From contig CM059432.1 in the NCBI GenBank assembly GCA_030390025.1, positions 67,458,001 through 67,522,000 on the forward strand: 64,000 nucleotides of DNA. Reading direction: 5' to 3'. The notes under the pieces were generated by a model that saw nothing but the letters and a program-made list of their open reading frames with translations, did not search any database and had not been told where the DNA came from. Positions within the stretch are counted from its first letter, which is position 1. Each line of letters starts with the position of its first letter. Origin of the DNA: Squalus acanthias (Eukaryota). Position numbers and translations under genes: made by a program. Shown piece after piece: positions 1-56,949 of this stretch.

Positions 1-1430
1 AATCTTCAGAGCTGCTGACATTTTCTTCCCCTTAATTTGATACAAATTAAATAAGTTTCAGGCTGAAGATATTAAGCTCATCTGATCCACTATTTGAATT
101 AGTTTGAAAGTGAACCCTGCCATCATGAGAAAATTCTAACATTTACTTAGTAAGATCAGGATATTTGACAATCGTATCTTCTGCAGAGCTGTTTCTTTCA
201 ACCTGAGGCAATTTCTATCTTTTTAATACTGTCTGTATCTTGCTTAGACGTATTCCTGTTGGAGATTTCTTCCACCCTCATTACCTACTCCTTGGCATTA
301 CCTGATTATTTTCAATGGGTCCCATATCACTTGATCTTTTTATCTAGGAGAGTAATATAGCCCAGGGAATCTCAGAGCAAAGTGATGTATTATCTTGAGA
401 AAGTGTTTTCAGTGAAATCCAGCAACTGGCAAAAAGGAATGAATTTATAAATCTCGACTTATTTTTCTGGAAAGTAACAGTGGATTATGTTCCAGTGGGT
501 GTTGGCGCTGAAGGGCAGAGCAATTATCTTTTTCTTTCATTTAAAAAAAAAATCTGCTGCTTTCATTTAACTGATCTTCCTGCTTGTATCACACATTATA
601 CGTAGGTTTCCAATGTTTTTGAAGACCACTTTGAGCTCCAGGGAGACGGTGGTATACCAATTAGTAATAAGAAGAATATTAAAATATAATGAGACTCTGT
701 TAAATACTGAGACAGATAGGAAAAACAAACCAGATCATATACAGTATTTTCACAGAAGTCAAAGATTATTGGCTTATGAAACATCTGAGGAGGGATAATT
801 CGCTGGATGTTATTTTAACGCTGACTTATTGCCATTTGGAAAATGCCATTATGTTGAACTTGGACAGTATTTACACCATTTCACAAATCCTGAGATAGGT
901 TTAACATAACAATAATTATTTTATGTCGCAGGAGCAAAAATAGTCATTTAACTAATTAATTCAGACAATATGGGGGGAATTTTAATCCTCCCATGAGGTT
1001 TGGGAGAAGGATGGGGTATATAAATTATTATTATTTTTTTTTATATCGCAAAACGCGACCCCAACCCACCGTGTACGTGCCAGGTGCCACTTTTACAATG
1101 GCAGATTATGTGACGTGTCTGTGTCCCACTCTCAAGAGGAGGGACACCTCATTATAATATTTAAATCAGGCTCCAACAGTGTACTTGAACACAAGAATAC
1201 AAGAAATAGGAGCAGGAGTAAGCCATTTTGCCCTTCGAGCCTGCTCTGCCATTCAATAAGATTATGGCTGATCTTCTAACTCAACTCCACCTTCCAGCGT
1301 TATCCCCATATCCCTTGATTGCCTTCGTATCCAAAAATCTATCGCTCTCTATCTTGAATATACTCAACGACTGAGCATCCACAGTTCTCTGGGGTAGAGA
1401 ATTCCAAAGATTCACAACCTTTTGAGTGAA

Positions 1431-1902
1431 AAGAAAGAAAATAAAATAAAGACTTGCATTTATATCGCACCTTTCACAACCACTGGATATCACAAAGCAC
1501 TTTACAGCCAATGAGGTAGTGCAGTCATTGTTGTAATGTAGGAAACGCAGCAGCCAATTTGTGTACAGCAAGCTCCCACAAACAGCAATGTGATAATAAG
1601 CAGATGATCTGTTTTAGTGATGTTAATTGAGAGATAAAAATTGACTAGGACACTGGGGCTAACCCCTCTGCTCTTCTTCGAAATTATGCCATAGGATCTT
1701 TCACATCCACCTGAGGGCAGACGTGGGCTCGGTTTAACATCTCATCCAAAAGATGGCCTCTCTGACAGTGCAGCACTCCCTCAGCACTGCACTGGAGTGT
1801 CAACCTAGATTTTTGTGCTCAAGTCTCTAGAGTGGGACTATGAACCCACAACCTTCTGCCTCAGAGGCTAGAGTGCAACCAACTGAGCCACGGCTGACAC
1901 CT
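1431..1902 (-). mobile_element. tRNA-derived DeuSINE (SacSINE1-like) with L2-type 3' tail
   Basis: Reverse complement has A box TGGCTCAGTTGG, a degenerate B box, a Deu-domain-like core (GATGTTAAACCGAG...GAAGAGCAG) and tail TGAAAGGTGCGATATAAATGCAAGT. Near-identical copy at 37085-37523. Confidence 0.8.
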
Positions 1903-2150
1903 ATGTGAAGAAATTTCTCCTCATCTCAGACCTAAATGGCTGACCCCTTATTCTGAGACTGTGACCCCTAGTTCTAGACGCTCCAGCAAGGGGAAACATC
2001 CTCCCAGCGTCTACCCTGTCAAGCGCCTTAAGAATTTTATATGTTTCAATGAAATCACCTCTCATTCTTCTAACTCTAGGGAATATAGGCCTAGTCTACT
2101 CAATCTCTCATCATAGGACAATCCCCTCAACTCAGGAATCAGTCTAGTGA

Positions 2151-2311
2151 CAAGCAAGATAATGCGGATGCTGGAGATCTAAAGTAAAAACAGAAAATGC
2201 TGGAAATACTGAGCAGGTCAGGCAGCATCTCTGGAGAGAGAAACAGAGTTAACGTTTCAGGCCAATGACCTGAACTCTGTTCTGATGAAAGGCCATCGAC
2301 CTGAAACATTA
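2151..2311 (-). mobile_element. Penelope-like element terminal fragment with short inverted pseudo-LTR piece
   Basis: 14-bp TSD AATCAGTCTAGTGA at 2137-2150 and 2312-2325. Matches the end of the PLE at 31747-32640. Inverted segment 2282-2310 carries CTGATGA...GAAAC. Confidence 0.8.
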
Positions 2312-2621
2312 AATCAGTCTAGTGAACTTTTGTAGCACTCCCTCTAAGACAAGTATATCCTTCCTTAGGTAAGGAGACCAAAACTGTACACAGTACTCCA
2401 CGTGTGGTCTTACCAAGTTCCTAAACAATTGTAGTAAAACTGCTTCAGCGAGAAATTCGGCTCTGCAGCGCCCGATTTTTCTGTGCTACGGGTGCCATTT
2501 TGTGTTGAAAATGGCGTCCATGCACTTGCGTGCGAACACCTCTGGCGCGGGTCGTGCTGGATGACATTTTGCTGAGGGCGGTAGGGCGGGCATTAGGAGC
2601 CTGCGCCGCAAGTATGTAGAG

Positions 2622-3470
2622 TGGAATATTTTGTATCGGTCTTCACAGTAGAAGACAGTAAAAGCATCCCAATAATAATTGAGGGAGGAACTTAAAACAA
2701 TCACTATCACTAGAGAAAAAGTACTAGGCAAACTAATGGGACTAAAGGCTGACAAGTCCCCAGGACCTGATTACCTACATCCTAGGGTCTTAAAAGAAGT
2801 GGCTGCAGAGATAGTGGATGTGTTGGTTGTAATCTACCAAAATTCCCTGGATTCAGGAGAGTCCCAGCAGATTGGAAAACCACAAATGTAAAGCCCCTAT
2901 TCAAGAAAGGAGGGAGGCAGAAAGCAGGAAACTATAGGCCAGTTAGCCTAACATCTGTCATTGGGAAAATGCTGGAATTCATTATTAAGGAAGTAATAGC
3001 AGGACATTTAGAATATCATAATACAATCAAGCAGAGTCAACATGGTTTTATGAAAGGGAAATCGTGTTTGACAAATTTACTAGAGTTCTTTGAAGATGCA
3101 ATGAGCAGGGTGGATAAAGGGGAACAAGTAGATGTCGTGTATTTGGATTTCCAGAAGGCATTCGATAAGGTGCCACATAAAAGGTTACTGCACAAGATCA
3201 GAACTCACGGGGTTGGGGGTAATATATTAGTATGGATAGAGGATTGGCTAACTAACAGAAAACAAAGAGTCGGGATAAATGGGTCATTTTCAGGTTGGCA
3301 AACTGTAACTAGTGGGGTGCCACAGGGATCAATGCTGGGGCCTCAACTATTTACAATCTATATTAATGACTTGGATGAGGCCAAGACCAGATCAGCAATG
3401 ATCTTATTGAATGGCAGGGCAGGCTTGAGGGGTCGAATGGCCTACTCCTGCTCTTATTTCTTATGTTCTT
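2622..3470 (+). mobile_element. CR1 LINE fragment, internally deleted
   Basis: [33 protein letters not shown] and SGVPQGS motifs. Jumps at ~3380 directly to the 3' UTR and tcttatttcttatgttctt tail. Confidence 0.9.
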
Positions 3471-3916: not shown

Positions 3917-4868
3917 TGTAGGTCAGCGAGCACAGGGGTGATGGACTAACGGGACGTGGTGCGAGTTAGGACACGGGCAGCCGAGGTTTGGATGAGCCTC
4001 AAGTTTGCATAGGGTGGAATGTGGGAGGCCAGCCAGGAGTGCATTGGAATAGTCAAGTCTAGAGGTAACAAACGCATGGATGAGGATTTCAGCAGTGGAT
4101 GGGCTGAGGCAAGGGCGGAGATGGGCGATGTTATGGAGGTGGAAGTAGGTGGTCTTTGTTATGCTGCGGATATGTGGTCAGAAGCTCATTTCAGGGTCAA
4201 ATATGACACCAAGGTTGTGAACAGTGTGGTTCAGCCTCAGACAGATGTTTGGGAGAGGGATGAAGTCAATGGCTAGGGAACGGAGTTTGTGGCGGGGACT
4301 GAAAACAATGGCTTTCGGTTTTCCCAATATTTAATTGGAGAAAATATTTGCTCATCCAGAACTGTTTGTCGAACAAGCAGTCTACAATTTAGACACTGTG
4401 GAGTGGTAGAGAGAAGAAGTAGTGAGGTAGAGCTGGGTGTCGTCAGCATACATGTGGAAGCTGACATTGTGTTTTCGGATGATGTCGCCAAGGGGCAACA
4501 TGTAGATGAGAAATAGGAGGGGGCCAAGGATAGATCCTTGGGGGACACCAGAGGTAACGATGCGGGAGCGGGAAGAGAAGCCATTGCAGGTGATTCTCTG
4601 GTTACGATTAGATAGATAAGAATGGAACCAGGCGAGTGCAGTCCCACCCAGCTGGACGACGGTGGAGAGGCGTTGGAGAAGGATGGAGTGGTCAACCATG
4701 TCAAAGGCTGCAGACAAGTCAAGAAGGACGAGGAGGGATAGTTTACCTTTGTCACAGTCACAAAGGATGTCATTTGTGACTTTGATGAGAGCCGTTTCGG
4801 TACTGTGGCAAGGGCGGAAACCTGATTGGAGGGATTCAAACATGGAATTGCAGGAAAGATGGGCACGG
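3917..4868 (-). mobile_element. L2-clade LINE reverse transcriptase fragment
   Basis: QSGFRPCHSTETALIKV, LLDLSAAFDMVDH, GVPQGSILGP and YADDTQLY are L2-type RT motifs. Confidence 0.9.
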
Positions 4869-6125
4869 ATAAAGACCTCTATTAGGTCACCCCTCAGCCA
4901 TCTTTTTTCCAAGAGAAAAGAGATCCAGCCAGTTCATCCTTTCCTGATATGTATACCCTTGTATTTCTGGTATCATCCTTGTAAATCTTCTCTTCACCCT
5001 CTCCAGTGCCTCTATATTCTTTTTATAATATGGCGACCAGAACTGTACGCCGAACTCTAAGTGTGGTCTAACCAAGGTTCGAGACAGGTTTAGCATAACT
5101 TCCCTACTTTTCAATTCTATCCCTCTAGAAATTTACCCTAGTGCTTGGTTTGCTTTTTTATGGCCTTGCTAACCTGTGTCGCAACTTTTAGTGATTTGTG
5201 TATTTGTACTCCTACATCCCCTTGTTCCTCCACCCCACCTAGACTCGCGCCCTCCAAGTGATAAGTGACCTCCCTATTCTTCCTACCAAAATGTAATACC
5301 TCACATTTATCTGTGTTGAACTTCATTTGCCAATTATATGCCCATTCTGCAAGTTTATTAATGTCCTCCTGTAGCTTGTTGCAGTTCTCCTCAGTATTGA
5401 CTATCCCCCCCAATTTGGTGTCATCCGCAAATTTAGAAATTGTGTTTTTGAGTCCTAAGTCTAAATCGTTAATGTAAATTGTGAACAGCAGTTGTCCCAG
5501 AACTGATCCTTGTGGAGCACCACTACCCACCTTCTGCCACTGTGAATAGCTATCCTTTACTCCTACTGTCTGCTTTCTGTCCTGAAGCCAGCCAGCAATC
5601 CATTCTACTACTTGTCCCCTGACTCCACATTCTCTGACCTTGTTCATCAGTCTATTATGGGGTACCTTATCGAAGGCCTTTTGAAAATCCAGATAAATTA
5701 CATCTACTGCATTACCATTGTCTACTCTCTCTGTTACCTCTTCAAAAAATTCGATAAGGTTGGTCAAGCAAGATTTTCCCTTTTGAAATCCATGTTGACT
5801 ATTCATTATTATATTTTTGGTTTCTAGATGTTCTTCCATTTTCTCCTTTAGTAGGGATTCCATTATTTTTCCTACCACCGATGTTAAGCTGACTGGTCTA
5901 TAATTCCCTGAACATGTTCTATCCCCCTACCTAAATATCAGTATTACGTTAGCTATCCACCAGTCCTCTGGCACTACACCCTTTTTCTAACGAATTATTA
6001 AATATGCGTAGTAATGCCTCTGCTATCTCTTCCCTAGATTATTTTAAAATGCATGGATGCAATCCATCCGGACCAGGTGTTTTATCCTCTTTGAGTTTGA
6101 TTAATTTATTTAATATATCCCCTTT
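4869..6125 (-). mobile_element. CR1 LINE RT fragment
   Basis: ORF 5138-5878 with [19 protein letters not shown] and KCEVLHFG; ORF 4887-5114 with LVRPHLE. Confidence 0.9.
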
Positions 6126-8619: not shown

Positions 8620-9637
8620 TAGTAATTTTTTTTTGCTGCTCTGACTCTGTTCCCCAGCCAGTTCAATCATCTGCTGCAGGCAGAATGCACCTCCCTTTTA
8701 AGAGGTGCAGACTGCCTTTAAGAAGTGCCGTCCAGCTTTAATTGGTGCTAGCCTAACACGAACTTGGGCCCCCTGCTGAGCGTTCAGCCACTCAGCAACG
8801 CATTCAGCACTGGGCTGAATGGTACAATCATTTCAATCAGCAGGCAACACAAAGTTAGCGGGCTGCCTGCATTAACTTGAATGGGCATGGGTTGATCTCA
8901 CATTGCAATCCCCGTGATCGTTTTTGGGTGGAAACCAATTTCTAGCTGCTGTATTCTTATACTCTAATGCCTTTGTAATAAAGCCTAACATACCATTTGC
9001 TTTCCTAATTGCTTGCTGTACCTGCATATTAACTTTCTGTAATTCATGTACAAGGACACCCAGGTCCCTCTGAATACTAACATTTCCCAGGCTCTCACCA
9101 TTTGAAAAATATTTTGCTTTCTGATTTTTCCTACCAAAGTGGATAACTTCACACTTCTTCACATTATTTTCCATCTGCCATGTTCTTGCCCACTCAATTA
9201 ACCTGTCTATATCCCTTTGCAGCTCCTTGCGTCCTCCTCACAGCTTACTTTCCCACCTACCTTTGTATCATCAGCAAACTTAGATACATTACACTCGATC
9301 CACTAATCAAAGTAATTGACATCGATCGTAAATAGCTGAGGCCCAAGCACTGATCCTTGCGGTACCTCACTAGTTACAGCCTGCCAACCCAAAAATGACC
9401 AGTTTATTCCTACTCTCTGTTTTCTGTCCGTTAACCAATCCTCAATCCATGCTAATATATTACCCCAATCCCATGAGCTCTAATTTTGTGCAATAACCTC
9501 TTGTGTGGCACATTGTCAAATGCTTTGAAAATCCAAATTCACTACACACACTGGTTCCTCCTTATCTACCCTACTAGTTACAGCCTCAAAAAACTCAGGT
9601 AACAGGTTAGTCAAACATGATTTCCCTTTCATGAATC

Positions 9638-10225
9638 CGTGTTGACTCACCTCCTGACTCCCCAAAGCCGTTCCGCCATCTACAAGGCACAAGTCAGGAC
9701 TGTGATGGAATGGTCTCCACTTGCCTGGATGAGTGCAGCTCCAACAACACTCAAGAAACTCAACACCATCCAGGACAAAGCAGCCCGCTTGATTGGCACC
9801 CCATCCACCACCTTAAACATTCACTCCCTCCACCACCGGCGTACCGTGGCTGCAGTGTGTACCATCTACAAGATGCACTGCAGCAACTCACCAAGGCTTC
9901 TTCAGCAGCACCTCCCAAACCCGCGATCTCTTTCACCTAGAAGGACAAGGGCAGCAGATGCATGGGAACACCACCACCTCCAATTTCCCCTCCAAGTCCC
10001 ACACCATCCTGACTTGGAAGTATATCACCGTTCATTCATCGTCGCTGGGTCAAAATCCTGGAACTCCCTCCCTAACAGCACTGTGGGTATACCTTCACCC
10101 CTCGGACTGCAGCAGTTCAAGAAGGTGGCTCACCACCACCTTCTCAAGAGCAATTAGGGATGGGCAATAAATGCTGGCCTTGCCAGCGATGCCCACATCG
10201 CAGAAATGAACGACTGAAAAAAAAA
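9638..10225 (+). mobile_element. 5'-truncated copy of the tRNA-headed LINE family (CR1/Zenon-like RT C-terminus)
   Basis: IYKAQVR..MEWSPLAWMSAAPTTL...SLHHRRTVAA; 3' UTR gcaattagggatgggcaataaatgctggcc plus poly(A). Matches 26365-26919. Confidence 0.9.
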
Positions 10226-10315
10226 ATTTCCTTACGACTGAGGTCAGGCTAACTGGCCTTTCATTCCCAGTTTTCTCTCTGACTATTTTCTTGAATAATG
10301 GGGTTATGTTTGCTA

Positions 10316-10929: not shown

Positions 10930-11902
10930 TACCGAGATCCTGATTTAAATTTAATGCTGGTCAGCCGGGTTTCCCAGGGCTTGGGAAACTTGGCAGTGGA
11001 ATGGAGGCGGGAGCAGTTGGATCAAGCAGGTAAGTGCTTTTTATAGCAGTGCTTGTGGGACAGGAGGAGGGAGGAGCAGGAGTGCTCCCCCCGGCCTCTC
11101 AAGCAAGTCTTCTGCTGCTATTGGCCAACCTTCCAAACCCACAATCTCTCCCACCCGATTGGCGGTCTGACACCTCCCTTCTGCCCCAACAGTCCTTGGC
11201 TGCTGCCTTCTGTCACTGGTTTTCCTCCTGGCAGCTAGTCAGCCTGTCAGTCTGGCTGGCTGCCAAGCGGGAAACGGAATAACAACATTTTTTTTTTTAT
11301 TCGTTCATGTGATGTGGGAGTCACTGACAAGGCCAGCCTCGACCATCCCTAATTGCCCTAGAGAAGGTGGTGGTGAGCCGCCTTCTTGAACCGCTGCATT
11401 CCGTGTGGTGAAGGTATTCCCATCGTGCTGTTATACTTCTTTGTAGCGTTTTGGTACAACTGAGTGGCTTGCTCGGCCATTTCAGAGGGCAGTTAAGAGT
11501 CAACCACATTGCTGTGGGTCTGGAGTCACATAAAGGTCAGACCAGATAAGAATGACAGATTTCCTTCCCTAAAGGACCTCAGTGAACTAGATGGGTTTTA
11601 TGACAATCCAATAGTTTCATGGTCACCATTACTGACACTAGCTTTTTATTCCAGATTTATTTAATTAGCTGGATTTAAATTCCCCAGTTGCCGTAGTGGG
11701 ATTTGAACTCACGTCTCACCAGATCATTAGTCCAGTCCTCTGATTACTGGTCCAGTAACATAACCACTATGCTACCGTAATGAGGTCTTGCCGTTAGATT
11801 CGGCAACACCTCTCTGTTCCCCCCCACGATGGGCAGGAGAGGGGGTTTTCCCAGGTTTTTTTTGCTATAACTTTGGTGGATGACTGGTGAAACCCCGGCC
11901 AA
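10930..11902. mobile_element. Non-autonomous Harbinger-like element interrupted by a SINE
   Basis: Shares the block gggtttcccagggc..gggaaac..ggcag...ggagcaggagtg with 55500-55650 and, inverted, with 14400-14470. Ends in aaaccccggcc. Confidence 0.45.
11288..11778 (-). mobile_element. tRNA-derived SINE, internal-deletion derivative of the LINE at 23937-26919
   Basis: A box TAGCATAGTGG and B box GAGTTCAAATCCC. Body matches 23937-24235, including ATG GCC GAG CAA. Joins the LINE 3' end at ~11433 and ends in a poly(A) tail. Confidence 0.9.
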
Positions 11903-14745: not shown

Positions 14746-15683
14746 AGAAACATAGAAGCATAGAAGATAGGAGCAGGAGTAGGCCATTTGGCCCCTCGAG
14801 CCTGCTCCGCCATTCGATGAGATCATGGCTGATCATCCAAACTCAGTACCCTGTACCTGCCTTCTCCCCATATCCCTTGATACCTTTAGCTTTAAGAAAT
14901 ATATTTAACTCCTTCTTGAATATATTTACTGACTTGGCCTCAACTACCTTCTGTGGTAGAGAATTCCACAGGTTCACCACTCTCTGGGTGAAGAAATTCT
15001 TCCTCATTTCTGTCCTAAATGGCTTACCCCTTATCCTTAGATTATGACCCCTGGTTCTGGACACTCCGACCATCGGGAACATTCTTCCTGCATCTAGTTT
15101 GTCCAGACCTGCCAGAATTTTATATGTTTCGATGAGATCCCCTCTCATTCTTCTATACTCCAGCGAGTATAAGCCCAATCGACCCAATCTCTCCTCATAT
15201 GTCATTCCTGCCATCCCAGGTATCAGCCTTGTGAATCTTCGCTGAACTCCTTCCATGGCAAGAACATCCTTCCTCAGATAAGGTGACCAAAACTGCACAC
15301 AGTACTCAAGGTGTGGTCTCACCAAGGCCCTGTACAACTGCAGCAGGACATCCCTGTTCCTATACTCAAACCCTTTCGCTATGAAGGCCAACATACCATT
15401 TGCCTTCTTCACCGCCTGCTGCACCTGCATGCTTACCTTCAGCGACTGGTGTACAAGGACACCCAGGTCTCGTTGCACTTCCCCTTCTCCCAATCTATTG
15501 CCATTCAGATAATAGTCTGCCTTTCTGTTTTTGACACCAAAGTGGATAACCTCGCATTTATCCACGTTATATTGCATCTGCCACGCTTCTGCCCACTCAC
15601 CCAACCTGTCCAAATCATCCTGGAGTTTCTCAGTATCCTCCTCGGAGCACACACGCCCACCCAGCTTTGTGTGTCATCTGCAA
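14746..15683 (-). mobile_element. 5'-truncated young CR1 LINE with uninterrupted ORF2 C-terminus
   Basis: ORF 14843-15652 (269 aa) runs from just after the FADD region to the natural stop without a break. 3' tail (tatgcttc/tatgtttc) at ~14746-14765. Confidence 0.92.
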
Positions 15684-15899
15684 ATGGTGATTGTTAACCC
15701 CACTCAAGTCCATAGCACACCAACAAAACCTGGAAAGAAGGGGTTTTTGAGCAGACCTTTCAGCCCTGCAGTGGCTCAGGTAAGTGCTGTTAGACTATTT
15801 CTGGGTCCTCAGTGTTATCCTTTTTTTCTTTATTTCCCATTGGGGCTTTAGCTTCATGAGCCTTTGTGCTACTTTTTATTGTCCCAGATTTTGTTGTTG

Positions 15900-23936: not shown

Positions 23937-26919
23937 GGGAACGGTAGCATAGTGGTAATGTCACTGGACTAGGAATCCTGAGGCCGGGACTAATGATCCA
24001 GAGACATGAGTTCAAATCCCACCTAGGGAATTTAAATTCAATTAAATAAATCTGGAATAAAAAGCTAGTATCAGTAGTAGTGGTGACCATGAAATCCATC
24101 TGGTTTACTAATGTCCTTTAGGGAAGGAAATCTGCCATCCTTATCTGATCTGGCCTATATGTGATTCCAGACCCACAGCAATGTAGTTGACTCTTAACTG
24201 CCCACTGAAATGGCCGAGCAAACTGTTACAAGAAACAATAATAAGAATAAAACCAGATGGACCACCTGGCATCGACCTCGGCACCGGACACGGCAACGGT
24301 ATACTCAGCCCAGTCGACCCTGCAAAGTCCTCCTCACCAACATCTGGGGACTTGTGCCAAATTGGGAGTCCCACAGACTAGTCATACTCACAGAATCATA
24401 CCTTTCAGCCAATGTCCCAAACTCATGCACCAGCAGGACAGACCCACCAGGGTTGGTGGCACAGTGATATACAATCAGGAAGGAGTGGCCCTGGCAGTCC
24501 TCAACATTGACTCTGGACCCCATGAAGTCTCATGGCTTCAGGTCAAGCATGGGCAAGGAAACCTCCTGCTGATTACCACCTACCACCCTCCCTCAGCTGA
24601 TGAATCAGTACTCCTCCATGTTGAACACCACTTGGAAAAGTAGCAAGTGCACAGAATGTACTCTGGGCGCGGGACTTCAATGTCCATCACCATGAGTGGC
24701 TTGGTAGCACCACTGCTGGTCGAGTCCTGAAGGACCCAGCTGCAAGTCTGGGCCTGCGACAGGTGGTGAGAGAACCAACATGAGGGAAAAACCTACTTGA
24801 CCTCATCCTCACCAATCTACCTGTGCACGACAGCATTGGTAGCAGTGGACAACGCACAGTCCTTGTGGAGATGAAGTCCCGTCCTCGCATTGAGAATACC
24901 CTCCATCGTGTTGTGTGGCACTACCACCGTGCTAAATGGGATAGATTCAGAACAGATCTAGCAGCTCAAAATTAGGCATCCATGAGGTGCTGTGGGCCAG
25001 CAGCAGAAGTGTATTCCACCATGGCCTGGCATATCCCTCACACCATCAAGCCAGGGGACCAACCCTGGTTCAATAAACTGTCCAAGAGCAGCACCAGGCA
25101 TATCTAAAAATGAGGTGCCAATCTGGGGAAGCTGCAACACATGCATGCTAAAAAGCGGAGGCAGCATGATATAGATAGGGCTAAGTGATCCCACAATCAA
25201 CGGAGCAGATCAAAGCTATCCAGTTGTGAATGGTGGTGGACAATTAAACAACTAACGGGAGGAGGAGGCTCCATAAATATCCCCATCCTCAATGATGGTG
25301 GAGCCCAGCACGTGAGTGCAAAAGACAAGGCTGAAGCGTTTTCAGCCAGAAGTGCCGAGTGGATGACCTCCTGAGGTCTCCACCATCATAGAAGCCAATC
25401 TTCAGCCAATTCGATTCACTCCACGTGATATCAAGAAACGGCTGAGCGCAGTGAATACAGCAAAGGCTATGGGCCCCGACAACGTGCTGAAGACTTGTGC
25501 TCCAGAACTAGCTGCACCTCTAGCCAAATTGTTGCAGTACAGCTACAACACTGGCATCTATCTGACAATGTGGAAAACTGCCCAGGTATATCCTGTCCAC
25601 AAAAAGCAGGACAAATCCAACCCGGCCAATTACCGCCCCATCATTCTACCCTCAATCATCAGAAAAGTGATGGAAGGTGTCATTGACAGTGCTATCAAGC
25701 GGCACCTACTCACTGATGCCCAGTTTGGGTTCTTGCCAAGACCACTCGGCTCCCGACCTCATTACAGCCTTGGTCCAAACATATACAAAGGAGCTGAATT
25801 CCTGAGGTGAGAGTGACTGCCCTTGACCGAGTGTGGTATCAAGGAGCCCTAGTAAAACTAAAGTCAATGGGAATCGGGGGGGTAAACGCTCCACTGGCTG
25901 GAGTCATACCTAGCACAAAAGAAGATGGTTGTGATGGTTGAAGGTCAATCATCACAGCCCCAGGACATCGCTGCAGGAGTTCCTCAGGGCAGTGTCCTAG
26001 GCCGAACGAGCTTCATCAATGACCTTCCCTCCAACATAAGGTCAGAAATGAGGATGTTCGCTGATGACTGCACAGTGTTCAGCGCCATTCACAACTCCTC
26101 AAATAATGAAGCAGTCCAGGCCCGCATGCAACAAGACTTGGACGCTTGGGCTGATAAGTGGCAGGTAACATTCACGCCAGGCAATGACTATCTCCAACAA
26201 GCGAGAGTCTAACCACCTCCCCTTGACATTTAACGGCATTACCATCGCCGAATACCCCACCATCAACATCCTGGGGGTCACCATTGACCAGAAACTTAAC
26301 TGGACCAGCCACATAAATACTGTGGCAACAAGAGCAGGTCAGAGGCTAGGTATTCTGCGGCGAGTGTCTCACCTCCTGACTCCCCAAAGCCTTTCTACCA
26401 TCTACAAGGCACAAGCAAGGAGTGTGATGGAATACTCACCACTTGCCTGGATGAGTGCAGCTCCAACAACACTCAAGAAGCTCGACACCATCCAGGACAA
26501 AGCAGCCCGCTTGATTGGCACCCCATCCACCACCTTAAGCATTCACTCCCTCCACCACTGGTGTACCGTGGCTGCAGTGTGTACCATCTACAAGATGCAC
26601 TGCAGCAACTCGCCAAGGCTTCTTCTGCAGCCCCTCCCAAACCCGCGACCTCTTCCACCTAGTAGGGCAAGGGTAGCAGACGCATGGGAACACCACCTCC
26701 TCCAAGTTCCCCTCCAAGTCACACACCATCCTGACTTAGAAGTATATCGCCGATCCTTCATCGTCGCTGGGTCAAAATCCTGGAACTCCCTACCTAACAG
26801 CACTGTGTGGGAGTACCTTCACCACACGGACTGCAGCGGTTCAAGAAGGCGGCTCACCACCATCTTCTCAAAGGCAATTAGGGATGGGCAATAAATGCTG
26901 GCCTTGCCAGCAACGCCCA
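23937..26919 (+). mobile_element. Apparently full-length single-ORF LINE (APE + RT, CR1/Zenon-like) with tRNA-derived 5' head
   Basis: tRNA-like head at 23937-24025 and ATG at 24210. APE motifs LLTNIWGL, ILTESYL, GGTVIY, GDFNVHH and LLDLILTN. RT motifs KAMGPD, NYRPI, GVPQGSVLG and FADD. 3' UTR shared with the SINEs. Many small deletions and stops. Confidence 0.88.
23945..24020 (+). promoter_or_regulatory. RNA Pol III type-2 internal promoter (A and B boxes)
   Basis: A box TAGCATAGTGG at 23945-23955 and B box GAGTTCAAATCCC at 24008-24020. Confidence 0.75.
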
Positions 26920-29892: not shown

Positions 29893-30256
29893 TGGCATGG
29901 CCAGCATTTATTGCCCAACCCTAATTGCCCTCGAGAAGGTGGTGGTGAGCTACCATTTCAGAGGGCAGTTAAGAGTCAATCATATTGTGGGTTTTGAGTC
30001 ACATATAGGCCAGACTGGGTAAGGACGGCAGATTTCCTTCCCTAAAGGACATCAGTGAACCAGATGGGTTTTTATGACAATCCGGTAGTTTCATGGTCAC
30101 CATTATTGATAATAGCTTTTTATTCCAAATTTTTTTAATTAACTGAATTTAAATTCTCCAGCTGGTATGGTGAGATTTAAACTCACATCTCTGGATAATT
30201 AGTCTAAACCTCTGGATTACTAGTCCAGTAACATAACCACTATGCTACCGTTCCCC
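29893..30256 (-). mobile_element. tRNA-derived SINE, second internal-deletion derivative of the tRNA-headed LINE
   Basis: Same head and body. Junction ctgaaatgg|tagctcaccaccacc at ~29952 differs from the 11433 junction. Confidence 0.88.
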
Positions 30257-30656: not shown

Positions 30657-31587
30657 TTTTTTTTTAATTCGTTTATGGGATGTGGGCATCGCTGGCAGGG
30701 CCAGCATTTATTGGCCATCCCTAATTGCCCTTGAGAAGGTGGTGGTGAGCCACCTTCTTGCCCCACAGTGCTGTTAGGGAGGGAGTTCCAGGATTTTTCC
30801 CCAGTGACGATGAAGGATCGGCGCTATACTTCTAAGTCAGGATGGTGTGTGACTTGGAGGGGAACTTGGAGGTGGTGGTGTTCCCATGCGTCTGCTGCGC
30901 TTGTCCTTCTAGGTGGAAGAGGTTGCGGGTTTGGGAGGGGCAGCAGAAGAAGCCTTAGCGCGTTGCTGTAGTGCATCTTGTAGATGGTACACACTGCAGC
31001 CACGGTGCGCCGGTGGTGGAGAGAATGAATGTTTAAGGTAGTGGATGGGCTGCCAATCAAGTGGGCTGCTTTGTCCTGGATGGTGTCGAGCTTCTTGAGT
31101 GTTGTTGGAGCTGCACTCATCCAGGCAAGTGGAGAGTATTCCATCACAATCCTTACTTGTGCCTTGTAGATGGTGGAAAAGCTTTGAGGAGTCAGGAGGT
31201 GAGACACTCGCCGCAGAATACCTAGCCTCTGACCTGCTCTTGTTGCCACAGTATTTATGTGGCTGGTCCAGTTAAGTTTCTGGTTAATGGTGACCCCCAG
31301 GATGTTGATAGTGGGAGATTCAGCGATGGTAATGCCATTGAATGTCAAGGGGCAGTGGTTAGACTCTCGCTTGTTGGAGATAGTCATTGCCTGGCACTTC
31401 TGTGGCGCGAATGTTACCTGCCACTTATCAGCCCAAGCCTGAACGTCATCCAGGTCTTGTTACATGCGGGCATGGACTGCTTCGTTATCTGAGGAGTTGT
31501 GAATGGTGCTGAACACTGTGCAGTCATCAGCAAACATCCCCATTTCTGACCTTATGTTGGAGGGAAGGTCATTGATGAAGCAGCTGA
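30657..31587 (-). mobile_element. 5'-truncated copy of the tRNA-headed LINE family
   Basis: ORF 30824-31387 is nearly identical to 26184-26894. The 3' UTR and poly(A) are at 30657-30760. Confidence 0.9.
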
Positions 31588-41430: not shown

Positions 41431-44399
41431 TCAAATCAAAACTTTAAAATACATGATTAAATCCATTCTTGTCTTTTACAAGGTAAAATGATATTAATGA
41501 AGTACTTAGGTATGCTACACAGACATGTTGAATAAATTGCCCTTATTTTGTGCAAATTATAGCTTCTATTTCTAGATTTAAACCGAATACCATTGAATAC
41601 GTTTTCCAGTGGCCATGGCATGCCAACACTTTTGTGATGAGTATCTTCTGGCAATCTCTGGCTTTAGTTATTGCATGAGTTTGGTACCCACAGTACTTCC
41701 CTTTACATAAACAATGGGAATTTTAAAATTACATTATATAAATGAGATAGATTCACATCCTTTTCCCAAATCCTCCTCCTTCTGTAGGGAGGAGATTAGG
41801 GAAAATATCCCCTATTTCCTATGTATAGTGAAACTGAAAAAATATTTATAAATAATGTATTAATGATTTGGCTACACACACACAGTGCACAGAGGAAATC
41901 TTCACACTTGGGGGAACCTACAGCTAAACTGTGCACACCAGAAGGGAAGAATTTACTTGGAAAAACAGACAGTAACTGCAGCGCAAATGCAGTTCTGTCA
42001 CTGAGAAGACAAGAGTTAAAATTTCCATTAAAGAATATTTTAAAATCAGTTAGAAAATAGATTCTTACTCACTAAGAATGTCCTTTATCTTGATCCTACA
42101 ATATAACTAAAACTAAAACCAAAACCAAATACACAACAGTGAAAAATTGGTTGTGACCTTGAGATGTCCTGAGGATATGAAAGATGCTATATAAATGCAA
42201 GATCTTGTTTTTCAAATGCTTATTATAAAATTCAATGCACACACAATTATGCACATTGATATATTCTGCAAAATTGCAAATGTTTTAGCCAGTAGTAAAT
42301 ACTTCTGCTCGAATTCCTAAATTACCCCATTGCAGCAGAATAAATGTTGATGCCAGTCATGTGCATTTGCGATGCTATGGTGCTAATTATCTTTGCTCCT
42401 ACTGAGAGGATGCAAAAGAATATTAATGGCCAAAGAGATCCAAGCATCAGGCGAACAGCAGGAATAACACCAGATCTCCATCACACTTAATTCACCAGAT
42501 GGGGATTGTGAATTAAGGGTCAGTAACACTGCTGAAAATCCCATATTGATCCGTCTGTCCGAAGCACACCCCAATGATTCCTTCTTTCTGATATTATTTG
42601 GGGTTAAAGGAGAATCGAAGCCTAGTGATAGCATCTGACCCCAGTCACATGGAGCATTCTGTTAATATCAGTTGTAGTATAGTAAAAAGTCAAACAATTT
42701 GCTGTATTTATATTGAGCAAAGATTCTGCTACAGAACTAATTTGGCAATATATGTAAACAAATTCTCTTTAAATTTCTCCTGTAATTTGCACAGTAACTG
42801 TTATCATCTCCCATAATATGGGAAAAAAATTCTACATCTTAATCTTTAAATCTAAATTCTACAGCTTAATCTCTAAATCTAAAAGATGTTCTGTGAAGAA
42901 ATGAGATAGGCCAACTTCTGGAGTGAGAATCTAACCAGCCCACCCTCCCCACCGCCTGTTTCAAAATGCTCATTAGTATTTTTGTAGCTTGTTATTTCCC
43001 TCACTAATAAATCATTATTAATGTTCAAACTAAGAAACTACTGAAAAATTGTCAGATTAGAAGGTTAAAGGGCAGTTATTTTTATCCCTTACATTCCTTG
43101 TAAAAATTCAAGAAGAAGACTGGAGTGTAAGAATAAAGAGAGGTATATAATGAGTGCTGTGTCTGTGTTCTCTTGGTTACAGTAGTGCTAGTCACTCCTG
43201 TGAGTGGCCCGAGCATCTTATGTTCAAGAGTGAGTCCATTCTGCCAATACCTAACTATACAACAGTGTAACAGTAGGAGCCCCCTTGTCATCTTAACTGG
43301 CCATTTTATCTTTCACACATGTTCTATCTTGTGTTTTTTCCCAAACTTTTTGAAGGTGGACTGAAACATTTAGTGAGACGGGACCAAATATGAATCATTA
43401 AGCTGCTTTATGTTACAAAGATCAAGTGAATGTATAGAGTAATAGATGCAATCAAATCTCACCTTGCCGCAAAAATCTCCTCAAACATAATAAAAATAAT
43501 AAAATTGCCAAATTATCCCCATTTGTGGGCTGATTTAACTTTTTACGGTCAGCATAGTGATCCTGACTGGCTTTGGACTTCAGATGAGCAAGCTTCCCCT
43601 CGCTATGCCCGGGTTCATACCCAGACTTAACTGGCTGAGTGAGTGCCCATGAGTCCCTTTGTCCTCGGTGTTCTCAGCCAGTGGCTGGGCTGTCCCTCTG
43701 ACTTCTCCATTCAGTGATGTGCTAGTAGACCCATCAATATAACCAGCTACCTCTCTTACCCCTTTGGGGTGCAAGTTTAAAGAAAACATCTTCTGCTATT
43801 TCCAAAATTAATAAGGGCCATTCTGGCTTAATGAGTTTGGGTTGGATTGATTGACTGTCCACTTGAAGTAAACAGTGGGCTGCTACATTTCACAGACTGG
43901 CTCATCTAGATTTAATCCACAACTTCAACACCTGCAGCCTGTGGCTCTTATATCAAATATGGACATAAGAACATAAGAACATAAGAAATAGGAACAGGAG
44001 TAGGCCATTTGGCCCTTCGAGCTTTCTCCGCCATTCAACGAGATCATGGCTGATCATCTGCCTCAATTCTATTCACCGGCCTTATCGCCATATTCCTTGA
44101 TGCCCTTACTAGTCAGAAATCTATCGACTTCTGTTTTGAATATACCCAATGACTGAGCCTCCACAGCCCTCTGGGGTATAGAATTCCAAAGATTCACCAC
44201 CCTCTGTGTGAAGAAATTTCTTCTCATCTCAGTCCTGAATGGCCTACCCTTTATCCTGAGGCTGTGGCCCCTGGTTCTAGACTCCCCAGCCAAGGGAAAC
44301 TTTCTCCCAGCATCCACCCTATCAAGCCCTGTAATAATTTTTTATGCTTCAATGAGATCCCCTCTCATTCTTCTGAATTCAAGAGAATTGGAGTAAGAC

Positions 44400-46357
44400 T
44401 GTAAAGGAATAGCCATATTTCAGAAAAATACACCATCCTATGAACAGAATTCTGACTTTATTAAAACATGACAAACTGGGGTTAAAAATCTAAAAGCCTC
44501 AACGACACAAGCTGTGAATACAGGCTTCTGAGATAAGATGAGTCACAAAGCTGTAAACATCATACAAGCTTTTGAAATGGGAATTGGTTGTAAATACTAA
44601 GACAATGGCCTCATTGAAACAGAGGGTTGGAGGTTCCAAGAAGTCTGCAGTTTGGAACCAACACAATAGCTATACCCAGTTTAAAGTTCGAACAGAAACA
44701 CAGAACATTAAAAAACCATGGGCTGGATTTTCAATGACCCGTGGAGTCGGGTTTGGAGGCGTGTGGGGGGTTAAAGTTGCGGGGTCGGGGGTCCCGACCC
44801 CATCCTGACTCCATCCCGCCTCCACGTAATTTTGACAAAATCAATCGCGGGGTTCCAGACTCCGTCCCGCCTCCAAGGGGCGGGAGAGGCCATTAAAGCC
44901 CTAAATTGGCTCTGTAATGCCATTTTGAAACGTTTAACTACTTTAACCCTTTTCCCACGTGCTGCTCATTTTGCATCCAGGTCCACTCACAGCAAAAGCC
45001 AGGCAGGTCCACTCACAGCAAAGGCCAAGCAATCTCTGAGACCAGGCAGTCTCTGCAATGATGACATCATCAGAGGCGACTTTCAGACTCAAACCACTAA
45101 TTGGTTCATGGGTTCCCACATGCTGGAACTCAATTGCCCAATTAAGTGAAAATTGCATCATTCATCCACATTAATCTGGAGTCAGGGGGGCAACACGAAA
45201 TGCGGATCACACGACCCCAACCCGACCCCAAGACAAAATCCAGCCCCATGTGTCTTTGTAAAAGTAACATCAAATGAAAGACAAGAAACATAAGTTTGTA
45301 ATACAACCAATTGAAGTAGCTAAGAAATGCATAGAACACCCTAGTGAAGTGTTTTTAATTTACATATTGTAAAAGGTACAAACAGAAGACTTTGTAAATA
45401 TTACATCAATAGATGCACCAAGCAATCACATTGTTTATGTGTTAAACTTGGAACACAAGGAGCCAGGAGTCTGTGTTACAACCAGCAGAGGTGATTTAAA
45501 AATTGAATGGAAGACCTTTGTAAGAATGGCATCAAATAAAAAACTACTGTCATATTGTTTTTTATGATAAGATTTGAACACCTAAACAGCAGACAGGATT
45601 CTGAAAGTTAACAGCTAAACTGACAATAAGATTAGAAAGAAGTCAACAGAAAATATGACTGGAGATAATTAGCTTACATCAGCAGAAAACTTCAAAGAAT
45701 ATACCACTGCAAAAAGAGTATAAAATATGGAGCTTTCAGATAGGAAGTCAGAAGTCGCTGGAAGGGTCAGAGCGATTCTCGCCTTCAGAACCACTCTGCA
45801 GGCCTACAACTCTTTGAGTCTCGGGTAATCAAGGTAGTTGATTTTGGTGGATATTCTGGATTATAAATAAGTACGAAGTGTGGAAATGTAACGAAGTTAA
45901 GATTTGAGAATAAGGATCTCTGATAAGAAATGTAAGCTATTTGTATTTTGAACTGTTAAAGTTGCGATTGAATCAACAACTGTTAGCTGCATTTCGGTTC
46001 TTTAATAAATCTATATATTTTTAGAATTGTCTCAGAGTAATTCTGTATCAAACTCGCAAACTCAATTTCTGTACACTCTTTTGTGAGGAGTTGCAGAATT
46101 CTGGGGGGGGGGGTTTTCTGGACCCTCATAATATCTGGAAGGTTACAGTCTAGTTAAACTTATTAAAAGTGCTATCTGGAGGACAGTAACATCTTCAAGC
46201 CGTTCCTTTCCTTTAGGGTGAGGTAGTCTGACCTTTAGACCCAATTAAGCGTCTCTAGGATTCGGCTATCTCTAACTTTAGTTGAAGGTGAACGTCTGGG
46301 GAATACGCCTGATCTGGGGTAGCCTGAAAAGGGCTAGGATTAGTAATTATCCCTTCA
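44400..46357 (+). mobile_element. Solo LTR, family B (~1.43 kb without the MITE)
   Basis: TG...CA ends (TGTAAAGG...CCCTTCA). TSD AGAC at 44396-44399 and 46358-46361. TATAAAA at ~45719 and AATAAA at ~46004. Confidence 0.8.
44720..45246 (+). mobile_element. Harbinger MITE
   Basis: TIR GGGCTGGATTTT / AAAATCCAGCCC and TSD CAT. Same family as 62314-62959 and 53709-54480. Confidence 0.9.
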
Positions 46358-47221
46358 AGACTTCTTTACTCCTGTACTCAAATCCTCTTGTAATGAAGGC
46401 CAGCATACCATTTGCCTTCCTAATGGCTTGCTGCACCTGCACATTCGCTTTCAGTGACTCATGTACAAGGACACCCAGGTACCTTTGAGCATCTGCATTC
46501 CCCAATCGTTCACCATTTAGGAAATACTCTGCCTTTCTGTTTTTTCTACCAAAGTGAATAACTTCACACTTATCCACATTATAATCCATCTGCCATGTTC
46601 TCGCCCACTTACTGAGCCTGTCGAGATCCCCTTGAAGCCTCTTCACATCCTCTTCGCAACTGACACTGCCACCTAGCTTTGTGTCATCAGCAAATTTGGA
46701 AATGTTACATTTAGTCCCCGCATCCAAATAATTGATATAGATTGTGAATAGCTGGGGCCCAAGCACCAATCTTTGCGGTACCCCACTAGTCACAGCTTGC
46801 CATCCTGAAAAAGACCCGTTTATCCCTACTCTTTGTTTTCTGTCTGTTAACCAATTCTCAATCCATGCTAGTATATTACCCCCAATTCCATGTGCCCTAA
46901 TTTTGTTCACCAACCTCTTGTGTGGGACCTTATCGGAGGCCTTCTGAAAATCCAAATACACCACATCTACTGGTTCCCCTTTGTCTACTCCACTAGTTAC
47001 ATCCTCAAAGAACTCCAATAGGTTTGTCAAAAACAGGACTTCCCTTTCATAAATCCATGTTGACTCTGCCCAATCTTACTATTAGTTTCTAAGTGCCCAG
47101 TTATTACATCCTTTATAATAGATTCCAGCATTTTCCCAACTACTGATGTGAGGCTAACAGGTCTACATCCTAAACTCTTTCTGTGAAGAAAAAACTAGAT
47201 CAATAATCCTGAAATGTGACC

Positions 47222-48670
47222 TAGGAACATAAGTAGGCCATTCAGCCCCTTGAGCATGTTCCACCATTCAAGTAGATCATGACTGATCTGTATCTTAACT
47301 CCATTTACCAGCCTTAGTTCCATAACCCTTAATACCCTTGCCTAACAAAAAATCTATCAATCTGAGTTTTTCAAATTTTCAATTGACCTAACCTCAACAG
47401 CTTTTTGGGGGAAGAGAGCTCTAAATTTTTACTAGCATTTTTGTGAAGAAGTGCTTTCTGACATCACCCGTGAACGACCTAGCTCTTATTTTAAGGTTAT
47501 GCCCTGTTGTTCTGGACTCTCAGCAAAGGAAATAGTTTCTGTCTATCTACCCTATCATCTCAAACACCTTAATTAGATCACCCCTCAATCTTCTATACTC
47601 AAGGGAATACAAGCCTAGTCTATGCAACCGGTCCTCATAATTTAACCCTTTTAGCCCCAGTATCCATCTGATGAATCTATGCTGCACCCCCTCCAAGGCC
47701 AATAGATCCTTCCTGAAATGCGGTGCCCAGAACTGAACACAATACTCCAGATGGGATCTAACCAGAGCTCTGTACAGCTGTAACATAACTTCCACCCCTT
47801 TGTATTCCAGCCCTCGAGATAAATGCCAACATTCCATTAGCCTTTTTTTAAGTATTCTTTGTACCTTTCCACTAGCTTTTAGTGATTTCTGTACTTGCAC
47901 CCTTAAATCCCTCTGCTTATCCACAGTTCCTAGCTTCTCACCATTTAGTAAATACACTGATCTATCTTTCTTAGGTACAAAATGGATGACCTCACACTTT
48001 CCCACATTGACCTCCTCTACCACAATTTTGTCCACTCACTTAATCTATCAATGTTCCCTTGCAACTTTCAGCTCCCATGTACACTATTTACTGTACCACC
48101 TAACTTAGTGTCATCAGCAAACTTAGAAATACGGCTCTCTATTCCTTCAGCCAAGTCATATATAAAATATAGTTAAAAGCTGTGGCCCTAGTATAGATCC
48201 CTGGGGGTCACCACTAGTCACATCCTGCCAATTTGAGTATTTACCTATTATCCCTACTCTCTGTCTCCTACCCCCTAACCAATTTCCAATCCAAGCCAAT
48301 AGGTTGACTCCAATTCCATGCGCTCTCATTTTTGTTAACAATCTCTTATGTGGAACCTTGTTGAATGCCCTCTGGAATACCATATAAATAATATACAAGG
48401 ACATTCCCTTATCTACCACGTTGGTTACCTCTTCAAAAAAATCAACCTGGTTCACCTTACCCTTTACAAATCCATGCTAGCTCTCTCTGATCAGCTCATA
48501 TTTGTCCAAATGCTCAGTCATTTTGCCCCAAATAACAGACTCTAGTAACTTCCCCACAATTGACGTTAGACCAATAGACCTTTCATTTCCTAGTTTATCT
48601 CTCTTCCCTTTCTTAAATAGTGGAGTGATATTGTCAATTTTCCAATCCAAGGGGACAATTTCTGAAACGA
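47222..48670 (-). mobile_element. Older CR1 LINE fragment
   Basis: Frameshifted ORFs 48477-48677, 48156-48455 and 47547-48035 with CR1 RT motifs. 3' UTR at ~47225. Confidence 0.88.
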
Positions 48671-49229
48671 GTGACATGGAGACTGCTGCTCATAATACTC
48701 TAGAAGCTAAATTTAATTAAGAGAGCAGCTGTGACAGATTGAAATTGCCACCAATAATCCAGTCACCACATAATTAATGTGAACAACAAATTAGCTTCTC
48801 TTCTGTACCATGTTGCTGTCTGTGCACAAACATGCAAAGAACTACCCTGGCTTCCATAAAAGCTCTGCTCAACTTTATATATTCCCTTTCAAAACTGTTT
48901 TACGACAGTAATAACAAGTTAACATTTAATAAATTAAATGTATAGATGATACGGATGATATATACAACTCTTGACAATAAGTCATATCATTAGTAAAAAG
49001 CACCAGATACAATAGAAGATTTTATCAAATTGTAAAAGTGGTACCAACAAGGAGGAAGTGGCATCATTCTGTAGGTTGTAAATTTGTATATGAGATTGAA
49101 ATTCAAATCCGAGACTTGGTCAATAGATACCTTATTATTAATTCACTTTTTGCAGGCTTCAGCATTTCTAAGTTCAAAGTTTCAAAGTTGGTGTTGATAA
49201 TTCACCTAATGATAATTACAGCGTTACTA

Positions 49230-51879: not shown

Positions 51880-53408
51880 ATGAATTCTATAGATTCTGGA
51901 ATGGTTCCTGCAGATTGGAGGATAGCAAATTTAACCCCGCTATTTAAGAAAGGAGGGAGAGAGAAAACGGGGAACTACAGACCTGTTAGCCTCACATCAG
52001 TAGTTGGGAAAATGCTGGAATCTATTATAAAGGATGCAATAACTGGATACTTAGAAACGTTTCTAAGTGCCCAGTTATTGCATCCTTTATAATAATAGCA
52101 AGATTGGGCAGAGTCAACATGGATTTATAAAAGGGAAATCCTGTTTAACAAACCTATTGGAGTTCTTTGAGATGTAACTAGTGGAGTAGACAAAGGAGAA
52201 CCGGTAGATGTGGTGTATTTGGATTTTCAGAAGGCCTTCGATAAGGTCCCACACAAGAGGTTGGTGAACAAAATTAGGGCACATGGACTTGGGGGTAATA
52301 TACTAGCATGGATTGAGAATTGGTTAACAGACAGAAAACAAAGAGTAGGGATAAACGGGTCTTTTTTGGGATGGCAGGCTGTGACTAGTGGGGTACCGCA
52401 AGGATCGGTGATTGGGCCCCAGCTATTCACAATCTATATCAATGATTTGGATGCGGGGACTAAATGTAACATTTCCAAATTTGCTGATGACACAAAGCTA
52501 GGTGGCAGTGTCAGTTGCGAAGAGGATGTGAAGAGGCTTCAAGGGGATCTCGACAGGCTCAGTGAGTGGACGAGAACATGGCAGATGGAATATAATGTGG
52601 ATAAATGTGAAGTTATCCACTTTGGTAGAAAAAACAGAAAGGCAGAGTATTTCCTAAATGGTGAAAGATTGGGGAATGTTGATGCTCAAAGGGGCCTGGG
52701 TGTCCTTGTACATGAGTCACTGAAAGTGAATGTGTAGGTGCAGCAAGCCATTAGGAAGGCAAATGGTATGCTGGCCTTCATTACAAGAGGATTTGAGTAC
52801 AGGATTAAAGAAGTCTTACTCCAATTATATAGGGCCTTGGTGAGACCACACCTGGAGTACTGTGTACAATTTTGGTCTCCTTACCTAAGGAAGGATATAC
52901 TTGCCATAGAGGGAGTGCAACGAAGGTTCACGAGATTGATTCCTGGGATGGCGGGACTGTCGCATGAGAAGAGATTGAGTAAACTAAGCCTGTATTCTCT
53001 TGAATTCAGAAGAATGAGAGGGGATCTCATTGAAGCATCCAAAATTATTACAGGGCTTGATAGGGTGAATGCTGGGAAAATGTTTCCCTTGGCTGGGGAG
53101 TCTAGAACCAGGGGCCACAGCCTCAGGATAAAGGGTCGGCCATTCAGGACTGAGATGAGAAGAAATTTCTTCACACAGAGGGTGGTGAATCTTTGGAATT
53201 CTCTACCCCAGAGGGCTGTGGAGGCTCAGTAATTGGGTATATTCAAAACAGAAGTCGATAGATTTCTGACTAGTAAGGGCATCAAGGGATATGGCAATAG
53301 GGCTGGTGAATGGAGTTGAGGCAGAAGATCAGCCATGATCTCACTGAATGGCGGAGTAGGCTCGAAGGGCTGAATGGCCTACTCCTGCTCCGATTTATTA
53401 TGTTCTTA
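51880..53408 (+). mobile_element. 5'-truncated CR1 LINE, few lesions
   Basis: ORFs 51880-52092, 52210-52737 and 52738-53232 together give RT and the C-terminus; 3' UTR and tail follow. Confidence 0.92.
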
Positions 53409-55967: not shown

Positions 55968-56949
55968 TTTATCTCTGCATTAGTACTTCCTGGAGTCTCT
56001 GGGGGTAATTTTGAGATTGACCGTGGGTGGAGAACTTGTGGATGTGGATTGGCTACCTGTTATGATTGGCTAATCATAATATGACTAGGCAGAGTCAACA
56101 TGGTTTTATGAAAGGGAAATCACGTTTAACACATTTATTAGAGTTTTTTGAGGATGTAACTAGCAGGGTAGAAAAAGGGGAACCAGTGGATGTAGTATAT
56201 TTGGATTTCCAAAAGGCATTCGATAAGGTGCCACATAAAAGGTTGCTACACAAAATAAGGGCTCATGGGGTTGTGGGTAATATATTAGCATGGATAGAAG
56301 ATTGGTTAACGGACAGAAAACAGAGAGTAGGGATAAACAGGTCGGGCTCAATTTTAATGGAGGAGGTGGGATGGAGTCGGGTTACTTGGTGGGCGGGTTC
56401 CAGTCCCTGCTGCTGGTTTAATCCGCTCCAGCTTTGCAATTTTAATTCAATTGGCCTATTAAGCCCCGGCGGGCACGTTGGCTGCTGCAATGAGTGGGAG
56501 CAGGTCTGTTGCTCTCCACTAATGAGGTCATTGCTGCAGTGGTTCTTAAGGGGCCCAGTTAGCCCCATCCTCTCATTTCTCCTTTTGGCTGCAGTTTGGA
56601 TGATCCCTGGCTGCAATGAGTGCTGGCAAATCAAAGGCTGCTCCCAGATTTGATGCGGACTCCCTCCAAGCTCTTGTGGAGGGAGTAAGAGGGCGCAGGG
56701 ACATCCTGTTCCCTTGGGATGGCCAGAGGAAGCCTCCTCAGCAAATAAGACAGCCTGGCTGCACATTGCTGAGGAGGTCAGCGCAAGGTCCGTTTGTTCA
56801 CGCACCTGGCTCCAGTGCCGGAAACGATTTAATGATCTTCTGCGATCATCAACAGTGAGTATCACATCACGCTTAACTTCACTCTGCTTCCCTCCTCTTC
56901 TCATCACCAGCACTCTGCTTTATAAGCCTGCTCCTCCACATCCTGGCTG

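Follow-up and report, generated by a model that had tools for sequence, protein, structure and literature searches.

The short interspersed element on the minus strand at 11778-11288 of this dogfish locus, which was studied within a window of 64,000 nucleotides, raises the question of whether its whole length, rather than its tail alone, derives from a partner LINE. The birth of a SINE is usually pictured as the fusion of a small-RNA head to LINE parts. In the available text of one comparative study the origin of SINE bodies is presented as an open question (PMC5786205). Comparison of the short element with the LINE copies of the window and with contigs from several runs suggests that it is probably an internally deleted derivative (SIDE) of a single-ORF, CR1-group-like LINE, the 5' UTR of which itself starts with a tRNA-derived head bearing A and B boxes.

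The short element is 491 nt long and can be divided into a succession of parts on the minus strand. It begins with a tRNA-like head (11693..11778), recognized by box matches and self-alignment, in which patterns of the two promoter boxes place the A box at 11774-11764 and the B box at 11708-11700. An anticodon-arm-like stretch with a unit of about 20 nt occurs twice in tandem within this head and lengthens the spacing between the boxes, which amounts to 55-56 nt in the three head-bearing copies of the window. The duplication is seen in all three of these copies (11716-11757, 23963-24004 and 30188-30229); as a derived mark common to the LINE and the short forms it could serve to date the union of head and LINE. 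The Rfam tRNA model gave 15 bits for the head of the short element and 20 bits (E 0.031) for that of the LINE copy (23944-24023), neither of them reaching the gathering score of 29, and ARAGORN called no tRNA gene on the short element, which is also without the first ~4 bases present in both other head-bearing copies. Downstream of the head lies the body (11481..11692), which alignment to 23941-24221 and 30251-29953 identifies as the remainder of the LINE 5' UTR, followed by an ATG with three further codons (11469..11480), a 35-nt stretch (11434..11468), a LINE tail comprising the ORF end and 3' UTR (11299..11433), recovered by blastn to 26795-26919 and 10073-10227 as well as by translation and tblastn, and a poly-A tail of eleven residues (A11; 11288..11298). 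The last 146 nt, including the terminal A11, are LINE tail, and this LINE recurs at three other places in the window (26795-26919, 10073-10227 and 30760-30657). An early stop (11360-11358) lies within the tail ORF in the frame of the ATG, and the open frame of the short element spans only 40 codons and is probably a by-product. The sense strand has no run of four T (0.7-1.1 expected), and a search for a target-site duplication found none, the best candidate being a 5-mer 30 nt away. Folding of the whole element is similar to that of shuffled sequences (z -0.13), and the tail, which folds strongly in the copy at 10073-10215 (z -2.8), does not do so in the short element (z 0.39). The element may bear some resemblance to LF-SINE. 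Under the definition of SINEs used in the available text of SINEBase (PMC3531059), the element is non-autonomous and below the limit of 700 bp, has a tRNA-derived head as judged by its A and B boxes with an Rfam score below gathering, and has a tail in common with a partner LINE (84% to 26795-26919).

An earlier sequence-only reading had proposed that the short element has the same head and body as the region 23937-24235, that it retains the LINE start ATG GCC GAG CAA with the ATG at 11480, and that at ~11433 it jumps to the LINE tail; each of these proposals is upheld by alignment. The head and body matched 23941-24221 in blastn at 79.6% over 314 columns (E 8e-79), with 27 substitutions in 277 aligned bases (9.7%), and matched a third copy at 30251-29953 with an E-value of 2e-92. 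The four codons are identical to 24210-24221, while the tail is 84% identical to 26795-26919 (E 3e-33) and 82% to 10073-10227, and the junction joins the ATG frame to the LINE C-terminus in frame, retaining the last 28 codons' worth of the ORF. In two respects the same reading needs correction: the region 23937-24235 belongs to a 3-kb LINE, whose 5' end it forms, and does not constitute a SINE of its own, and the homology stops at 24221 instead of reaching 24235. The short element differs by 9.7% from the LINE head and body, by 10.2% from the LINE tail and by 11.9% from the other short copy, with the LINE tails differing among themselves by 4.3-8.9%. There is no deep split between the short copies and the LINE head in this comparison of three copies, a number too small for a tree.

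The partner LINE is a decayed copy on the plus strand (23937..26919), 2,983 nt long with its deletions included, in which the head and body make up a 273-nt 5' UTR. A single ORF runs from the ATG at 24210 to the stop at 26879-26881 and encodes an endonuclease, an RT and a C-terminal part in that order, ORF1 being absent; the ATG is in frame with the start motif of the endonuclease 37 codons downstream, with zero stops between them. The RVT_1 profile matched a fragment of this LINE (E 0.019) and Exo_endo_phos matched P0005, a 78% relative (E 0.0014). A Pfam match of the RT fragment to Enterotoxin_a (E 0.051) lay below the cut-off and was taken as chance. The presence of a single endonuclease-RT ORF agrees with the CR1-Zenon group, with elements of about 3.3 kb, and the LINE may be akin to a Zenon.

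Relative to both short copies, the partner LINE lacks 8, 4 and about 16-19 nt of its 5' UTR, all within the 280 nt before the ATG, and relative to the copy at 31581-30675 it lacks a further 9 and 11 nt; contigs of four runs point to more missing letters near 24365, 24824, 25218, 25735 and 25811-25823. This copy is thus unusually rich in small losses, with eight or more private deletions, each some 4-20 nt long and several of them between short direct repeats, and its substitution is only modest. The last ~20 nt and the poly-A that most contigs possess beyond 26919 are also missing from it. Two 5'-truncated copies of the LINE with poly-A are found elsewhere in the window. One, on the plus strand (9643..10227; blastn 91.9% to 26365-26919), adjoins an opposite-strand fragment of another LINE family (window 9223-10227) in what is apparently a nested insertion, and the other, on the minus strand (30657..31581), has a 31-nt deletion in the stretch of the tail where the junctions of short forms fall. 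A second short copy on the minus strand (29893..30255), 400 nt from the latter truncated LINE and on the same strand, has four ORF-start bases joined in frame to the tail at ~26850 with a 2-nt overlap, and its 3' end is cut. Other RT-coding LINE fragments, belonging to one or more families, lie at 1187-3400, 3995-6100, 14750-15700, 43970-48700, 51889-53400, 56066-56371 and 61330-62316.

The 35-nt stretch that follows the fourth codon is the part of the short element whose assignment is least direct. The sequence-only reading had derived the ATG and ~12 more codons from the LINE; four codons do match exactly, but the further 12 (11468-11433) have no significant alignment. The best anchored match to 24222-24262 comprises 9/15 bases at an 18-nt offset and is equalled by 22% of 20,000 shuffles, and local alignment to the partner LINE, the sole full LINE copy used for this comparison, gave p 0.25 (3,000 shuffles). 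A source in the LINE sequence immediately preceding the 3' junction was rejected, the match there being only a 6-mer. The first 13-18 nt of the stretch recur by eye in 3 contig joints from runs X2 and X15, with 12/13 and 16/18 letters alike in the X15 and X2 joints, respectively; as this recurrence lies between the two sides of head-to-tail joints, these 13-18 nt are common to the family instead of being confined to a single copy. A putative 18-nt loss after codon 4 of the partner LINE would be in frame and is flanked by CAA repeats, and it is rendered plausible by the 8, 4 and ~16-19 nt that this LINE has lost before the ATG. Hence, the 35 nt probably correspond to codons 5-16 of the LINE ORF, partly lost from the LINE copy in the window. 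Among the contig rows listed there are no inserted letters at 24221 and no contig leads from the 35-nt segment into the endonuclease. Published SIDEs of the Persaeus type have, according to the available text, a central piece without clear LINE origin (PMC6740152), so that the 35 nt need not come from the LINE.

The positions of the junctions bear on whether such short forms are a recurrent class or isolated accidents. In the short element the break lies 47 nt past the A of the ATG and the LINE sequence is taken up again at 26795; in the copy at 30255-29893 only four bases precede the break, with re-entry at about 26850, and four contig joints lead from 24203-24218 to 26784, 26840, 26854 and 26879, giving six different breakpoints in six head-to-tail joints (two from the window and four from contigs). 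The contig figures refer to the rows listed, 15 joints from a total of 5,667 and 12 between-letter rows from a total of 643, which are biased towards unusual junctions, and to runs other than X19-X24, which have small shares. The short forms constitute a recurrent class, with breaks clustered just past the ATG on one side and within the final 130 nt on the other, and with no single fixed junction. One contig has 11 nt more tail than the short element, which thus is not the master of all short forms. Descent from one master with later deletions is possible only with a second deletion across the junction in all six joints; varied breakpoints can also stem from such a master in a deletion-prone genome. 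That both window copies are joined in frame, which has 1 chance in 9, was not taken as a sign of selection, since loss of the ATG, a codon-3 stop and a joint out of frame are all found among the contigs.

An alternative to a propagated short form is that the middle of a single LINE insertion disappeared while it integrated or later on, without the shortened state ever being copied, so that the likeness to a SINE is one of appearance. The private deletions abundant in the window copies, the internal joints spread all along the LINE in the contig table and the lack of a target-site duplication marking a fresh insertion fit such an accident, as does the observation that neither window junction, including that of the short element, is present among the contig rows listed. 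Yet the two short copies of the window each have one break close to the ATG and the other within the final 130 nt, and a similar clustering is seen in the joints >500 nt among the 15 listed, where 3/5 have their start at 24207-24218 and the end of every one of the five falls at 26777-26879. Two of the three head-bearing copies of the window are short forms broken <50 nt from the ATG, and by a hand estimate (n=2) the chance of obtaining breaks so close to it from one-off deletions over 2.6 kb is about 4e-4. The other deletions in the window measure 4-31 nt, against 2.6 kb for the middle of the LINE, and the depth of 374 of the X2 joint, versus 15.6-39.3 for eight listed pieces of the same run, hints at several copies, with the caveat that depth is no copy number. 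A one-off loss is an improbable account of the short element. Internal deletion of the LINE is the best supported origin, because both halves are ~10% divergent from the LINE, both breaks fall inside the ORF, and the six joints have six breakpoints. To this extent the proposal of the sequence-only reading that the whole SINE derives from the partner LINE stands, but its argument from the ATG is weaker than envisaged, with homology shown for only four codons.

The retained ATG also does not fix the direction of transfer, because a LINE that captured the 5' part of a SINE would likewise use an ATG from there. It is conceivable that an older tRNA SINE consisting of the head, body and post-ATG stretch came first and captured a LINE tail, swapping tails at several points, and that the LINE later took over the 5' part of the SINE with an ATG supplied by the body. 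Such an order would explain why homology to the LINE of the window ends after four codons and why the ATG frame is not kept in every short form, as seen in the contig with a stop at codon 3; the head must in any case derive from a tRNA gene, and module exchange among SINEs is described as common in the available texts of PMC5499810 and PMC7245038. Depth is ambivalent in this regard: in X15, an RNA-like run, the deepest bin of the body is 8.2x that of the endonuclease, but the corresponding ratios are 0.90, 0.81 and 1.63 in the DNA-like runs X1, X2 and X7, where body depth is near endonuclease depth, none of these values being a copy number. The three copies without a deep split between the short copies and the LINE head also speak against a SINE-first order. 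A predicted gene of the whale shark, P0013, has body-frame residues followed by the endonuclease in the same order as the LINE, which shows that the union of head and LINE is not private to one copy. Further, TTT is depleted on the LINE sense strand (9 versus 26.2 expected; Poisson 1e-4), with 106 versus 97.5 expected in the other LINEs of the window as control. With the protein held fixed, the three LINE frames have 2 instances versus 7.8 (P 0.013), and six frames of the other LINEs 69 versus 71.6. Runs of four T are not rarer in the LINE than in dinucleotide shuffles (1 versus 1.8, P 0.45) or under the protein-fixed null (P 0.33). An avoidance of T runs is consistent with a long history under a Pol III promoter, and from this sequence pattern the head-LINE union looks old. 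The ORF-wide avoidance and the whale shark gene model thus point away from a late recombinant, and a SINE-first history for the present copies appears unlikely. The LINE-to-SINE direction is favoured for these copies by four weaker lines, namely divergence, P0013, depth and T-run avoidance. A more ancient capture of a SINE by the LINE, followed by deletion from LINE to SINE, is compatible with the preferred origin by internal deletion, and under either direction the head ultimately goes back to a tRNA gene or to a tRNA SINE of greater age.

The common head, ATG and tail and the varied breakpoints, as read from the compared sequences, allow a potential mechanism for the internal deletion to be outlined. 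The RNA of the parent would start at the head, perhaps through transcription by Pol III, and its own protein would reverse-transcribe it from the tail. Loss of ~2.6 kb of the ORF, most likely by a template jump during reverse transcription or else by a deletion in DNA, would leave the head, the 5' UTR, the first and last codons, the 3' UTR and the poly-A. As the parent would already carry a Pol III-type promoter, the product would at once have what a SINE needs, i.e. an internal promoter and a tail. The resulting short RNA, carrying both, could then be copied in trans by the parental protein, as suggested by the common tail, and this might have applied to the exact junction of the short element. 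Short forms may have arisen more than once, or have been trimmed further, and then spread. A more far-reaching version, in which the shark LINE is transcribed by Pol III, has been purged of T runs and repeatedly yields ready SINEs by single internal deletions, such that one of the SINE populations of the genome is a swarm of independently shortened LINEs and its "body" of unknown origin is the LINE 5' UTR with the first codons, is put forward tentatively, as a scenario that we hold to be rather less than probable.

Among known systems the closest parallel is Persaeus, described in the available text as a SIDE of a single-ORF CR1-Zenon LINE in Lepidoptera that arose at least four times (PMC6740152). 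There too the parent is an endonuclease-RT LINE with one ORF and a length of about 3.3 kb, and the short form keeps the 5' UTR, ORF start, ORF end, 3' UTR and poly-A with variable breakpoints (PMC6740152). The shark element likewise combines a LINE 5' UTR and ORF start (four codons) with the ORF end, 3' UTR and poly-A. In contrast, Persaeus is reported in the available text to be without tRNA similarity or a Pol III promoter, features by which its authors separate it from SINEs (PMC6740152), whereas A and B boxes are present in the shark element, which is therefore Persaeus-like in origin yet not classed as a Persaeus-type SIDE. Short direct repeats at the breakpoints are a further trait of the Persaeus type, for which the 2-nt overlap in the second short copy is an ambiguous sign. 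CR1-Zenon-like LINEs have been reported in the whale shark in the available part of 10.1101/443036.

A second parallel is provided by bipartite SINEs such as Bov-tA/Bov-A/BovB, CoeSINE4/5 and SINE2-1_ACar, which owe their middle to the 5' part and their tail to the 3' part of the same LINE after internal deletion (PMC5786205). They differ in that a bipartite element made by Pol II later gains its small-RNA head through a template switch, and in that only RTE and Vingi are named in the available text as contributing, whereas in the window the autonomous LINE itself already possesses the head; in the supplement of that study none of four 10-mers of the short element was found (0/4). RTE-1_DAn and elements related to it resemble the shark LINE as autonomous LINEs with a tRNA-like sequence, but they belong to the RTE clade and appear in the available text only as the source of filtered-out matches, with no mention of where the tRNA-like sequence lies, of a role as promoter or of a SINE derived from them (PMC5786205). 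A combination of tRNA head, body and LINE-type tail is known in cartilaginous fishes or the coelacanth from HE1/HER1 (V-SINE), SacSINE1 and LmeSINE1 (Deu), CmiSINE (CORE) and LF-SINE (PMC3747384, PMC5499810, as far as available). For SacSINE1 and CmiSINE, compared here by description and not by consensus, similarity to the partner LINE is, by contrast, reported at the tail only in the available text, which also describes chondrichthyan SINEs with tail similarity to L2-2_CM (PMC5499810).

The sequence-only reading had considered the element to depart from the standard model of SINE origin. This goes too far in that SIDEs keeping the ORF start and SINEs with LINE 5' parts have been published (PMC6740152, PMC5786205, both in their available text), but it holds for the parent LINE being itself tRNA-headed, by virtue of which the short element would be a SIDE that is also a SINE. 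The unusual part is thus the tRNA head on an autonomous parent, the retention of an ORF start after internal deletion being already known from Persaeus and from the RTE and Vingi bipartite elements. In the literature search, none of the papers found printed any of four test motifs of the short element or described a shark LINE that bears a tRNA head and has given rise to SINEs; Repbase and Dfam lay outside this search, and the element may be catalogued there.

A LINE that already has a tRNA head would provide a one-step route to a SINE and make the origin of the whole body traceable. Where a genome contains many copies of both parent and derivative, breakpoints and trees can directly test which way the transfer went and how many times short forms originated. 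As a rule, autonomous non-LTR elements use Pol II according to the available text of PMC10886601; a parent that is in fact transcribed by Pol III would depart from this rule, and one would have to ask how translation of its RNA is achieved.

Searches beyond the window gave few relatives. Body DNA patterns had zero matches in viral, metagenome and prokaryote contigs, and no locus related to the RT piece was found in the same sets. Protein searches with the first 51 codons of the LINE and with the 40-codon frame of the short element returned no candidates, which are weak negatives, and atlas searches recovered eukaryote clusters without a name, together with a single RVT_1 cluster whose share was 10%. 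Searches for homologues of the LINE recovered exonised fragments and one LINE at 24%. Pieces of the LINE (26211-26878 and 9948-10154) are translated in isoforms of shark genes, namely CHST6 in Cetorhinus, procollagen galactosyltransferase in Chiloscyllium and KCNH2 in Heptranchias, reflecting either exonisation or annotation error.
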